Of a stretch of DNA of 64,000 nt, positions 49,471 to 52,468 are shown piece by piece. Below the pieces are notes generated by a model. That model worked only from the letters and a program-made list of their open reading frames with translations. It had not been told where the DNA came from and did not search any database. Every line of letters starts with the position of its first letter. The first letter of the stretch is position 1. Origin of the DNA: Escherichia coli (GTDB lineage: Bacteria > Pseudomonadota > Gammaproteobacteria > Enterobacterales > Enterobacteriaceae); NCBI RefSeq assembly GCF_051903065.1, contig NZ_CP178438.1; one strand, written 5' to 3'. Made by a program: the position numbers and the translations under genes.

Positions 49471-50527
49471 GGCTTTGTTGAATAAATCAGATTTCGGGTA
49501 AGTCTCCCCCGTAGCGGGTTGTGTTTTCAGGCAATACGCACGCTTTCAGGCATACCTGCTTTCGTCATTTTGTTCAGCGCTCGTACCAGGGCCATAGCCT
49601 CTGCAACCTGACCATCGTAGTCACGCAGTGTCAGTGAACCCCCGAACAGCTGTTTTACCCGGTACATCGCCGTTTCCGCTATCGAGCGACGGTTGTAATC
49701 TGTTGTCCATTTCCACCGCGCATTACTCCCGGTCATTCGCTGATTAGCCACTGCACGGTTACGGTCTGCATATTCACCGGGCCAGTAACCCGCACCTTTT
49801 CGGGGAGGGATAAGCGCGCTGATTTTCTTACGCCGCAGTTCATCGTGACATAGCCGGGTATCGTAAGCGCCATCGGCGGCGGCTGACCTGATTTTCCGGT
49901 GGGTTTGCCGGATTAACCCGGGGAAGGCCTCTGAGTCCGTAACGTTGTTCAGCGACAGGTCAGCGCAGATGATTTCATGTGTTTTACTGTCAACGGCGAG
50001 ATGCAGCTTACGCCAGATACGGCGGCGTTCCTGGCCATGCTTTTTGACTTTCCACTCGCCTTCACCGAAGACCTTCAGCCCGGTGGAATCAATTACCAGG
50101 TGTGCGATTTCACCCCGGGTGGGCGTTTTGAAACTGACATTAACCGACTTTGCCCGCCTGCTGACACAGCTGTAATCCGGGCAGCGTAGCGGAACGTTCA
50201 TCAGAGAAAAAATGGAATCAATAAAGCCCTGCGCAGCGCGCAGGGTCAGCCTGAATACGCGTTTAATGACCAGCACAGTCGTGATGGCAAGGTCAGAATA
50301 GCGCTGAGGTCTGCCTCGTGAAGAAGGTGTTGCTGACTCATACCAGGCCTGAATAGCTTCATCATCCAGCCAGAAAGTTATGGAGCCACGGTTGATGAGG
50401 GCTTTATTGTAGGTGGGCCAGTTGGTGATTTTGAACTTTTGCTTTGCCACGGAACGGTCTGCGTTGTCGGGAAGATACGTGATCTGATCCTTCAACTCAG
50501 CAAAAGTTCGATTTATTCAACAAAGCC
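49471..50527. mobile_element. IS903-like insertion sequence (IS5 family)
   Basis: Terminal inverted repeats GGCTTTGTTGAATAAATC at both ends; 1057 bp; single transposase ORF. Confidence 0.85.
49527..50495 (-). CDS. IS903 transposase
   Basis: 322-aa ORF containing AKQKFKITNWPTYNKALINRGS. Confidence 0.85.
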   Translation of the reverse strand: MKDQITYLPDNADRSVAKQKFKITNWPTYNKALINRGSITFWLDDEAIQAWYESATPSSRGRPQRYSDLAITTVLVIKRVFRLTLRAAQGFIDSIFSLMNVPLRCPDYSCVSRRAKSVNVSFKTPTRGEIAHLVIDSTGLKVFGEGEWKVKKHGQERRRIWRKLHLAVDSKTHEIICADLSLNNVTDSEAFPGLIRQTHRKIRSAAADGAYDTRLCHDELRRKKISALIPPRKGAGYWPGEYADRNRAVANQRMTGSNARWKWTTDYNRRSIAETAMYRVKQLFGGSLTLRDYDGQVAEAMALVRALNKMTKAGMPESVRIA

Positions 50528-50583
50528 GGGTGATGCTGCCAACTTACTGATTTAGTGTATGATGGTGTTTTTGAGGTGCTCCA

Positions 50584-50859
50584 GTGGCTTCTGTTTCTAT
50601 CAGCTGTCCCTCCTGTTCAGCTACTGACGGGGTGGTGCGTAACGGCAAAAGCACCGCCGGACATCAGCGCTATCTCTGCTCTCACTGCCGTAAAACATGG
50701 CAACTGCAGTTCACTTACACCGCTTCTCAACCCGGTACGCACCAGAAAATCATTGATATGGCCATGAATGGCGTTGGATGCCGGGCAACAGCCCGCATTA
50801 TGGGCGTTGGCCTCAACACGATTTTACGTCACTTAAAAAACTCAGGCCGCAGTCGGTAA
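50584..50859 (+). CDS. insA: IS1 InsA
   Basis: 91-aa [44 protein letters not shown]. Confidence 0.9.
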
Positions 50860-51281
50860 CCTCGCGCATACAGCCGGGCAGTGACGTCATCGTCTGCGCG
50901 GAAATGGACGAACAGTGGGGCTATGTCGGGGCTAAATCGCGCCAGCGCTGGCTGTTTTACGCGTATGACAGGCTCCGGAAGACGGTTGTTGCGCACGTAT
51001 TCGGTGAACGCACTATGGCGACGCTGGGGCGTCTTATGAGCCTGCTGTCACCCTTTGACGTGGTGATATGGATGACGGATGGCTGGCCGCTGTATGAATC
51101 CCGCCTGAAGGGAAAGCTGCACGTAATCAGCAAGCGATATACGCAGCGAATTGAGCGGCATAACCTGAATCTGAGGCAGCACCTGGCACGGCTGGGACGG
51201 AAGTCGCTGTCGTTCTCAAAATCGGTGGAGCTGCATGACAAAGTCATCGGGCATTATCTGAACATAAAACACTATCAATAA
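50778..51281 (+). CDS. insB: IS1 InsB (expressed as InsAB' fusion by frameshift)
   Basis: 167-aa ORF overlapping the insA 3' end. Confidence 0.85.
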
Positions 51282-51297
51282 GTTGGAGTCATTACCA

Positions 51298-52468
51298 AGA
51301 ACGTAAACAAATCCATCCAGAAGATATACATCTCACTGCAAAAGACTTCGAAGCAAGTAAAGATAACATCTCTAAGGATGAATGGGAAAACCTCCATGCA
51401 TTAAAAGAAAAGCGTTTAAATGGAATGCCTAAAACAACCCCCAAAAGTGACCAGGTTATTATGCTGCAAAATCAATACGTTCGTGAAATGCGAAAATATG
51501 GCGTACGAGGTTTACGTTATGATGCGGCAAAACACTCAAAACATGAACAAATAGAAAGATCAATAACCCCACCGCTTAAAAATTATAATGAGCGATTACA
51601 CAATACTAACTTATTTAACCCAAAATATCATGAAAAAGCCGTTATGAATTACATGGAATATCTGGTAACTAGTCAGTTGGATGAACAACAAATGTCATCG
51701 CTGCTTTATGAAAGAGATGATTTAAGCGCCATTGATTTTTCATTGCTCATGAAGACGATAAAAGCCTTTTCATTTGGTGGCGATCTCCAAACCCTTGCAT
51801 CAAAACCGGGTTCCACAATCTCAAGCATCCCATCAGAAAGACGGATATTGATTAACATTAACCACGATTTCCCTAACAATGGTAATCTTTTCAATGACTT
51901 TCTATTTAACCATCAACAAGATGAACAATTAGCAATGGCATATATGGCCGCTCTCCCGTTCAGCAGGCCTTTAGTTTACTGGGATGGCCAAGTATTAAAA
52001 TCAACGACTGAGATTAAAAATGATGATGGGTCCACGCGTGTCGGCGGTGAGGCGTGGCTTAATAAAGGTTGCTCTACCTATCAGCAGCTCTACAATGAAT
52101 TCCACGCATTATATATAGATAAAGCAGGAATATGGAGCGCATTTGAGGGTGTATTTGCAACTAAAAACGTTCTGGCCTTTAGTCGTGGGGATTCTGTGAA
52201 TATTAATCACTCTCCTCATGACGGACTAGTTATAATAAATAAAGGAAACGAAGAAATTGAAGGTGCCTGGCCTAACAAATTGCAACCAGGAATATATAAA
52301 AATATGGGGAGTAATAGCGTTAACATTATTATTAATAATACACGCAAAAGTATTCCCCCTGGTAAAGTATTTACGCTTAAAGGCGGAACTCTAAATATCA
52401 ACATTCCTGGGCGTAGCGCTCTTCTTTTAGGGAAAACAGGAGAACTGCCGAACTATCTCTATTTGTAA
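51298..52468 (+). pseudogene. Glycoside-hydrolase (amylase-like) protein fragment, 5'-truncated at the IS1 boundary
   Basis: Reading frame is open from the IS1 end through the listed ORF 51425-52468 (codons checked by hand); no start context of its own. Confidence 0.55.

Follow-up and report, generated by a model that had tools for sequence, protein, structure and literature searches.

A probable multi-step insertion-sequence deletion scar, built on adjoining IS903B and IS1A, between fragments of ypjA and ygaQ in Escherichia coli

In a 64,000-nt stretch of Escherichia coli DNA (contig NZ_CP178438.1; hereafter the window, meaning that whole stretch), two complete, unrelated insertion sequences stand one base apart between two divergent genes, each of which has lost its 5′ end. 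This arrangement raises the questions of what DNA was removed, in how many events, and why exactly one base separates the elements. As set out below, the locus is likely a scar left by several insertion-sequence deletion steps; the interval, downstream of ssrA, is variable, AT-rich and dispensable. The features are as follows.

46140-49470, minus strand: 3′ fragment (3,331 bp with the stop codon) of ypjA/ehaD, which encodes an autotransporter adhesin
49462-49470: GTACCATCT, the 9 bp adjoining the left end of IS903; second copy absent
49471-50527, minus strand: complete IS903B (IS5 family, IS903 group), 1,057 bp
49527-50495, minus strand: intact, single IS903B transposase ORF, 322 aa (from the ORF list)
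50528: one-base spacer, G, between IS903B and IS1A
50528-50536: GGGTGATGC, 9-bp IS903 target made up of the spacer G and IS1 nt 1-8; one copy only
50529-51296, plus strand: complete IS1A, 768 bp (sequence read directly)
50584-50859 and 50778-51281, plus strand: IS1A insA and insB′ (from the ORF list)
51297-52468, plus strand: 3′ fragment of ygaQ (alpha-amylase family; Pfam Alpha-amylase_C)

Both elements are structurally intact. IS903B has perfect 18-bp terminal inverted repeats (GGCTTTGTTGAATAAATC), read directly at 49471-49488 and 50510-50527, and its transposase carries a DDE domain (Pfam DDE_Tnp_1_5, 3e-40; DDE_Tnp_1, 7e-33); PGAP/RefSeq names this element IS903B in genomes 23CRST027 and 23CRST031. 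IS1A has 23-bp imperfect inverted repeats that are 78% complementary (50529-50551 and 51274-51296), an A6C frameshift motif, TTAAAAAACTC, is visible at about 50833, and PGAP annotates a 'programmed frameshift'. A sequence-only reading of this DNA had placed the two elements one base pair apart, and indeed G 50528 is all that lies between them. That reading ended the feature at 51424, one base short of the first in-frame ATG in the ygaQ fragment (51425); the IS pair itself ends at 51296.

Neither element has the target-site duplication characteristic of its family. The 9-bp flanks of IS903 are mismatched (GTACCATCT on the left, GGGTGATGC on the right), where the IS903 group makes a 9-bp duplication, as are those of IS1 (ACAAAGCCG and AAGAACGTA), where the IS1 family makes one of 8-9 bp. 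No duplication of 7-12 bp was found around IS903, IS1 or the pair as a whole, which supports the proposal of the sequence-only reading that two divergent genes, both 5′-truncated, mark an IS-mediated deletion scar. IS903 lacks a duplication here because of deletion, and the missing IS1 duplication is consistent with an IS1-associated deletion.

The flanking genes were also described correctly from the sequence. The minus-strand autotransporter gene cut at IS903 is ypjA/ehaD, which by mapping to K-12 lacks its 5′ 1,256 bp and the N-terminal part of the protein; its frame stays open up to the IS903 boundary. The fragment retains AIDA repeats, Pertactin and Autotransporter beta-domain (Pfam), is labelled 'missing N-terminus' by RefSeq in 23CRST027 and 23CRST031, and maps to K-12 L004:1965-5471 and also to strain ECNB21-M121. 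The amylase-like plus-strand ORF is ygaQ without its 5′ 1,081 bp (K-12 L004:11479 onward), open from the IS1 end to 52468; a full-length ygaQ of 2,253 bp was found in strain A30. The ygaQ target region is AT-rich (37-38% GC). We conclude that ypjA and ygaQ are pseudogene fragments here.

Alignment to K-12 gives a gap of exactly 6,007 bp (NC_000913.3 2,781,471-2,787,477), which contains the 5′ end of ypjA, pinH′, ypjB, ypjC, ileY and the 5′ end of ygaQ. The K-12-like interval, at ≥80% coverage, is the commonest state, present in 2,814 of 5,426 complete E. coli genomes. The exact arrangement seen at this locus occurs in two of the 5,426, 23CRST027 and 23CRST031 (~100% identity); the outer junctions are confined to these two, and the inner junction is found additionally only in strain LA3. 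An assembly artefact is very unlikely because the structure recurs in these separately deposited genomes. In 23CRST027 one nucleotide is missing from the IS903 transposase ORF, at the site corresponding to window 49801, and the frame is shifted. Insertion sequences are abundant in the lineage: each genome gives about 19 matches to IS903 ends and at least 36 to IS1 ends.

The closest relative, ECNB21-M121, suggests a different ancestor. Its identity to the window is 99.9% in the 3.5-kb ypjA fragment and 100% across 9,239 bp of the right flank. Its IS1A matches the window copy at 768 of 768 positions and shares with it the locus, the orientation, the left-hand G and the lack of a target-site duplication. 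To the left of this IS1A, ECNB21-M121 retains an intact ypjA, ypjCB, a 47-nt remnant of ileY and a 7.4-kb island that begins inside ileY and carries int, a retron RT, ptuA and ptuB (a retron Ec78-type defence system); no intact tRNA gene is left at the interval. Its ypjA runs on past the window breakpoint (...CCATCT followed directly by TTCTCAAC), and its island meets IS1 at ...CCTGAATTTCG joined to GGTGATGC, with the G as the last island base. In ECNB21-M121 a deletion from the same IS1 end extends another 1,219 bp. Relative to this genome, the window lacks 11,732 bp between ypjA and the G (the equivalent of NZ_CP083585.1 1,126,008-1,137,739). The lost interval named by the sequence-only reading (pinH, ypjB, ypjC and ileY) thus holds as a comparison with K-12 and fails as a description of the ancestor, where ECNB21-M121 points to a longer, stepwise loss. 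We conclude that K-12 is the wrong ancestor model for this deletion.

We interpret the spacer G as the last surviving base of ileY-island DNA. The base before the IS1 right-flank site in intact ygaQ is A; the G therefore comes neither from ygaQ nor from a 9-bp IS1 duplication, since either source gives A. Separately, that the IS1 left junction goes back to an ancestor common to the window and ECNB21-M121 is read from one retained base (the G, a 25% match by chance) together with IS1 identity, orientation and locus. A search for an intact ileY island that would size the older IS1 deletion found none in the collection, and the right part of the island is unique to ECNB21-M121.

The one-base spacer is explained by the IS903 target, because the last island base and IS1 nt 1-8 together form a 9-bp target, GGGTGATGC, which falls within the tip of the IS1 left inverted repeat. 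In LA3, IS903 sits at exactly this IS1 position and in this orientation, with GGGTGATGC on both sides; because LA3 keeps this intact duplication, GGGTGATGC is a bona fide IS903 target. The LA3 IS903B differs from that of the window at 4 nt and its IS1B at 6 nt (6-7 nt separate the window IS1A from the IS1B copies in LA3 and B2), and the LA3 IS903B-in-IS1B is an independent insertion. We also scored sites against the published IS903 target motif, WTTYA-N9-TRAAW, over 10 positions. The pre-insertion site at the IS1 tip, taken from ECNB21-M121, matches 7 of 10 positions, in the top 2.7% of window positions, which is suggestive of a favourable target and says nothing on which junction came first. 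The LA3 site scores 5/10 and the ypjA breakpoint 4/10, which is average and at chance level.

These observations suggest the following history, in which two or more deletions would have produced the scar, first one at IS1 and later one of 11.7 kb at IS903. The ancestor would have had intact ypjA, pinH′ and ypjCB, and an island in ileY with an integrase and a retron Ec78-type RT-PtuA-PtuB. In a first step, presumably common to ECNB21-M121, IS1A would have entered the region, and an IS1-associated deletion would have brought the island interior (...TTTCG) up against ygaQ, at nt 1081 or upstream of it. The right end of the island, the functional copy of ileY and the 5′ portion of ygaQ would have been lost with this deletion. 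In a second step, whose junction is observed and whose order we infer, the IS903B transposase would have used GGGTGATGC and a site in ypjA. One junction would be a simple insertion and the other the endpoint of an IS903 adjacent deletion by intramolecular replicative transposition; either assignment fits the sequence, and GTACCATCT could accordingly mark where IS903 first inserted in ypjA or where an adjacent deletion ended. This step would have removed 11,732 bp, comprising the 5′ 1,256 bp of ypjA, ypjCB, the ileY remnant and the retron island, with only the G kept. IS1 would have been regenerated whole because the retained target copy holds its first 8 nt.

IS903 makes adjacent deletions through cointegrate-type transposition (PMC11708052, PMC12670165). 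Compared with ECNB21-M121, A30 and K-12, the window has the corresponding pattern: the IS is still in place with one of its flanks unaltered, and its other flank now consists of DNA that was formerly distant on the same side. The window lineage probably lost the retron anti-phage island in this way. As for the tRNA, the sequence-only reading had raised the matter of a tRNA-Ile copy elsewhere in the genome; the sibling 23CRST027 has ileX (anticodon CAT), located between mug and nfeF, and AUA decoding would be covered by it.

The same 11.7-kb loss could instead reflect RecA-dependent recombination between direct-repeat IS903B copies, one in ypjA and one in the IS1 tip, with no transposase-made adjacent deletion. 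The final sequence would be identical to the adjacent-deletion product, about 19 IS903 ends in the lineage make a double insertion plausible, LA3 shows that simple insertion at the IS1 tip occurs, and duplications are often missing because IS copies have recombined (PMC11708052). However, this route needs three events, two same-orientation insertions within 12 kb followed by recombination, against two for an adjacent deletion, and neither single insertion at these sites was seen in the 5,426 complete genomes. We therefore consider recombination rather unlikely, though the strongest of the alternatives. Intermediates, whether IS903 with a duplication in ypjA or an island-bearing locus with IS903 already at the tip of IS1, were not found in the same 5,426 genomes, and two k-mers would identify them in further members of the clone. 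Finding CCTGAATTTCGGGTGATGCGGCTTTGTTGAAT (IS903 at the tip of IS1, island kept) would indicate a primary insertion at IS1 and a leftward deletion, whereas CAACAAAGCCGTACCATCTTTCTCAACAACC (IS903 in ypjA with a duplication) would indicate a primary insertion in ypjA and a rightward deletion. Both k-mers in one genome would support IS903 by IS903 recombination.

A more general form of the adjacent-deletion reading would make the tip of the IS1 left inverted repeat (nt 8/9) a preferred IS903 target, with recurrent IS903::IS1 pairs acting as two-headed deletion generators, one side being worn away by each element, that here would have removed the retron Ec78-type island and ileY. We regard this as distinctly doubtful. 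A scan for an IS903 end, any base and an IS1 start gave no match in GTDB representative genomes and none in JGI metagenome contigs; therefore, no broad hot spot can be claimed. Among the PLSDB plasmid matches listed, the inner junction occurs only in two pieces, with the elements at least 188 bp apart. The IS903-IS1 pairs of BY63 and pSYM5/6 were considered as the same junction and rejected, their elements being 18-20 bp apart. In the BY63 pair both elements have intact duplications. The BY63 and pSYM5/6 pairs are ordinary neighbouring insertions in AT-rich DNA.

Direct loss of a K-12-like 6-kb interval, with the ileY island never present and the IS1 likeness to ECNB21-M121 coincidental, is very improbable. 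Such an interval is the commonest state among the complete genomes, and the breakpoints map cleanly on K-12. However, the closest relative, with its 9.2 kb of identical flank, carries both the island and an IS1A that matches the window copy fully and has the same G. Had IS1 simply inserted at this ygaQ site, the base on its left would be A. Scarcely credible is an IS903-G-IS1 unit pre-formed elsewhere and imported by recombination or gene conversion, or an assembly artefact at the IS repeats: LA3 has an identical 121-bp junction at an unrelated locus, but its elements differ from those of the window at 4 and 6 nt, its G belongs to a duplication made in situ in the flank of psu, the window IS1 is identical to the resident IS1 of ECNB21-M121, the junction was not found as a single piece among the PLSDB matches listed or in the genome and metagenome contig collections, and an artefact is rejected by the agreement of the window, 23CRST027 and 23CRST031 assemblies, with syntenic natural neighbours as flanks.

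The stepwise IS1 and IS903 deletion reading is thus preferred, and its general significance is small: the mechanism is already known, and the scar is an ordinary product of insertion-sequence activity. It is a clean natural case of two unrelated insertion sequences eroding a dispensable, horizontally acquired region stepwise; what was lost includes autotransporter adhesin gene sequence, a tRNA-Ile(CAU) copy that was redundant and, we infer, a retron anti-phage island. A further lesson is that the content of a deletion cannot always be judged against K-12. A defence island lost in one member of a clone and kept in another could matter for comparisons of phage susceptibility within the clone.

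The elements themselves are typical. Like other IS903/IS903B copies, the one described here has 1,057 bp, perfect 18-bp inverted repeats and a single DDE transposase ORF; the 9-bp target is intact as a duplication in the near-identical LA3 and BY63 copies, whereas the copy in the window lacks one, and one of its targets is the IS1 terminal inverted repeat, a position found in just two cases across the searched collections. One of its ends adjoins formerly distant DNA, the expected product of an IS903 adjacent deletion. IS1A, with 768 bp, 23-bp inverted repeats, insA and insB′ separated by the A6C motif and an AT-rich target, is ordinary in itself, although its left end is now capped by IS903; its unrelated flanks are those of known IS1 adjacent deletions. 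Scars in which a single IS bridges ypjA′ and ′ygaQ occur in B2/EC529 (IS1B) and ECCHD184 (IS903-like). These share the 5′ truncation of both genes and the lack of a duplication but have one bridging IS and miss K-12 L004 6422-10662 and 5416-11268, respectively, and they are independent events. The closest parallel in course is the IS150 'IS-Del' events of the E. coli LTEE (PMC11708052), in which insertion, adjacent deletion and extension follow one another without target-site duplications. A similar course is suggested here by comparing ECNB21-M121 with the window, but in a natural isolate lineage and with two IS families, one on each side.

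The window carries two complete insertion sequences, each abutting a gene that lacks its 5′ end:

49471-50527: IS903B, complete, 1,057 bp, perfect 18-bp inverted repeats GGCTTTGTTGAATAAATC (sequence reading of 49000-52000, repeat and ORF listings)
Minus strand, in IS903B: intact DDE transposase ORF, 322 aa (Pfam)
50528: single G spacer between IS903B and IS1A
50529-51296: IS1A, complete, 768 bp, 23-bp inverted repeats, insA/insB'
Minus strand, left of IS903: ypjA/ehaD autotransporter fragment with AIDA, Pertactin and Autotransporter domains (Pfam)

The ypjA/ehaD frame has no stop before the IS903 boundary, and the plus-strand frame of ygaQ (amylase-family) is open from the IS1 end until 52468. 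The one-base spacing and the double 5′ truncation noticed in the sequence-only reading are therefore both real. As that reading had led us to expect, comparison of flanks in the window revealed no target-site duplication around IS903 (9-bp flanks GTACCATCT left and GGGTGATGC right), around IS1 (...AAAGCCG left and AAGAACGTA right) or around the pair. Mapping to K-12 (NC_000913.3) places one breakpoint 1,256 bp into ypjA on the left and the other 1,081 bp into the ygaQ pseudogene on the right, a gap of 6,007 bp that contains pinH', ypjB, ypjC and ileY, the very genes predicted to be missing. A K-12-like interval (≥80% coverage) is present in 2,814/5,426 genomes, indicating that this region varies within the species.

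A 3-kb query spanning both elements recovered the full arrangement from only two of the 5,426 complete E. coli genomes, 23CRST027 and 23CRST031, both from human faeces in Ecuador; in both, RefSeq labels ypjA and the amylase gene 'missing N-terminus'. Across 14 kb, a single nucleotide separates the window from 23CRST027: that strain lacks the C at window position 49801, which frameshifts the IS903 transposase. An IS1 transposase frameshift is annotated in 23CRST031 (L014, 7685-8381). The window has neither frameshift, and those in the two siblings could be sequencing errors or true inactivating mutations. Given this one-nucleotide difference and a prophage that both siblings lack, the window counts as a further assembly of this clone, independent of the other two. 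Since three assemblies agree and the flanks are syntenic, misassembly of the IS903-G-IS1 join is very unlikely.

We ranked genomes by their identity over the ypjA fragment that survives in the window. The top-ranked genome, ECNB21-M121 (NZ_CP083585), is 99.9% identical over this fragment, well above the others, and its right flank matches window 52516-61754 with 100% identity over 9,239 bp. Its gene order is:

ypjA, full-length (4,587 bp); small ATPase ORF; pinH'; intact ypjCB
ileY, broken 47 nt in
L006 (taken from NZ_CP083585.1), 19852-27247: 7.4-kb island inserted in ileY, with frameshifted integrase, hypothetical protein, PtuB, PtuA, retron reverse transcriptase, fic remnant and two small ORFs
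IS1A, after the island, at the junction ...CCTGAATTTCG / GGTGATGC

The PtuB/PtuA/reverse transcriptase set is annotated as a retron Ec78-type system. The right part of the island is unique to ECNB21-M121 among the 5,426 complete E. coli genomes, its right end having been taken away by IS1, and no intact tRNA is left in the ypjA-to-IS1 stretch. The IS1A copy is identical to that of the window (768/768) and in the same orientation. Its right end adjoins the equivalent of window position 52516, 1,219 bp beyond the window's breakpoint, so ygaQ is wholly absent from ECNB21-M121. Compared with this genome, 11,732 bp are gone from the window lineage (NZ_CP083585 positions 1,126,008-1,137,739): the 5′ 1,256 bp of ypjA, then ypjCB, what was left of ileY, and the island with its retron. 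Hence, the proposal of an IS-mediated deletion was right as to the kind of event, but its content and history were too simple. The G at 50528 would be all that remains of the island, its final base; an origin in ygaQ or in a 9-bp IS1 duplication is discounted because either source would give A.

Strain LA3 (NZ_CP141840; L005 4001-5826) has an identical 121-bp IS903-G-IS1 junction at a different, unrelated locus, in a satellite-phage-like island beside a truncated psu, with a SIR2-family gene nearby. There, IS903B lies at IS1 nt 8/9 with GGGTGATGC on both sides, an intact 9-bp duplication that combines a single flanking base with IS1 nt 1-8; the LA3 IS1 likewise has no target-site duplication of its own. 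The LA3 and window elements differ by 4 nt in IS903 and 6 nt in IS1 (IS1B versus IS1A), indicating that the two events were independent. The intact LA3 duplication indicates that the right IS903 junction of the window is a genuine IS903 target in the tip of the IS1 left inverted repeat, and IS1 looks complete because the retained target copy holds its nt 1-8. Scored against the IS903 target motif WTTYA-N9-TRAAW, as listed in Table 1 of PMC2577343 (citing Hu and Derbyshire), the pre-insertion site in ECNB21-M121 matches 7/10 positions, a score within the top 2.7% of those across the window; the scores of 5/10 at the LA3 site and 4/10 at the ypjA breakpoint are unremarkable.

These comparisons suggest a stepwise history. 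First, an IS1-associated deletion in the common ancestor of the window and ECNB21-M121 would have taken out the right end of the island together with functional ileY and the 5′ portion of ygaQ, so that IS1A came to lie between island DNA with a terminal G on the left and ygaQ, joined at nt 1081 or further upstream, on the right. On the ECNB21-M121 branch the deletion would later have grown by 1,219 bp at that right end of IS1. For the window lineage, the fewest steps are needed if IS903 inserted once and made one adjacent deletion: IS903 may have entered the IS1 tip, with deletion leftward into ypjA, or entered ypjA, with deletion rightward up to the IS1 tip, two orders that are indistinguishable from sequence. 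IS903 makes adjacent deletions by a cointegrate-type (replicative) pathway (PMC11708052, PMC12670165). Homologous recombination between two IS903 copies yields the same product and is a serious rival, which we consider improbable as the source of the deletion. Each genome of this clone has ~19 matches to IS903 ends and 36 or more to IS1 ends.

Junction-specific searches of the 5,426 genomes found none with IS903 alone at either site or IS1 alone at the ygaQ site. The inner junction was not found as a single piece among the PLSDB matches listed, and the exact IS903end-N-IS1start pattern had no occurrence in GTDB representative genomes or JGI metagenome contigs. Two independent events at one nucleotide are a curiosity, not evidence for a general hot spot. 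In BY63 and pSYM5/6, IS903 and IS1 also lie close together, 18-20 bp apart, with intact duplications around both elements in BY63; we rejected these pairs as the same junction and regard them as neighbouring insertions in AT-rich DNA.

Elsewhere in the window, the prophage is P2-like, about 33.5 kb (12454-45980), integrated in ssrA (tmRNA gene, 12136-12498) with copies of a 46-bp direct repeat at its two borders (12454-12499 and 45935-45980). Alignments to Escherichia phage Cartapus and relatives span 84-89% of the prophage at ~96% identity. The prophage is missing from ECNB21-M121 as well as from the siblings, indicating recent acquisition. Two of its genes are:

43955-45712, minus strand: 585-aa cargo gene between the integrase (42928-43941) and attR; PADLOC dCTPase model (dCTP deaminase anti-phage defence), E 2e-146, and a Pfam cytidine-deaminase domain
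39495-40412, minus strand: methyltransferase; best PADLOC matches to orphan and type II models

BLAST self-hits also mark tandem segments of ~85-175 bp (~92% identity) at 57838-58104, downstream of gabT in the gabT-gabP gap, probably REP/BIME-type intergenic repeats.

The ypjA-ygaQ locus is repeatedly eroded by IS elements. Strains B2 and EC529 carry ypjA'-IS1B-'ygaQ (B2: L002 7516-8283) and ECCHD184 carries ypjA'-(IS903-like)-'ygaQ (L003 6516-7571), all without duplications; their breakpoints differ from those of the window, marking independent deletions in other lineages. Eleven further genomes have IS1 in ygaQ within a few hundred bp or less of the window's breakpoint. At 37-38% GC, both ygaQ and the K-12 interval lie below the window as a whole (51%). 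Losing ileY does no harm, since another tRNA gene, ileX (anticodon CAT), was found in the sibling 23CRST027 between mug and nfeF, answering the question of a tRNA-Ile copy elsewhere. We conclude that the scar is, as far as sequence comparison can tell, an ordinary multi-step IS1 and IS903 deletion, whose one-base spacer and missing duplications are explained by the ECNB21-M121 comparison and the independent LA3 case. In experimental evolution, stepwise histories of the 'insert, delete, extend' kind that leave no duplications are the rule (PMC11708052), and the scar represents biology that is already known.
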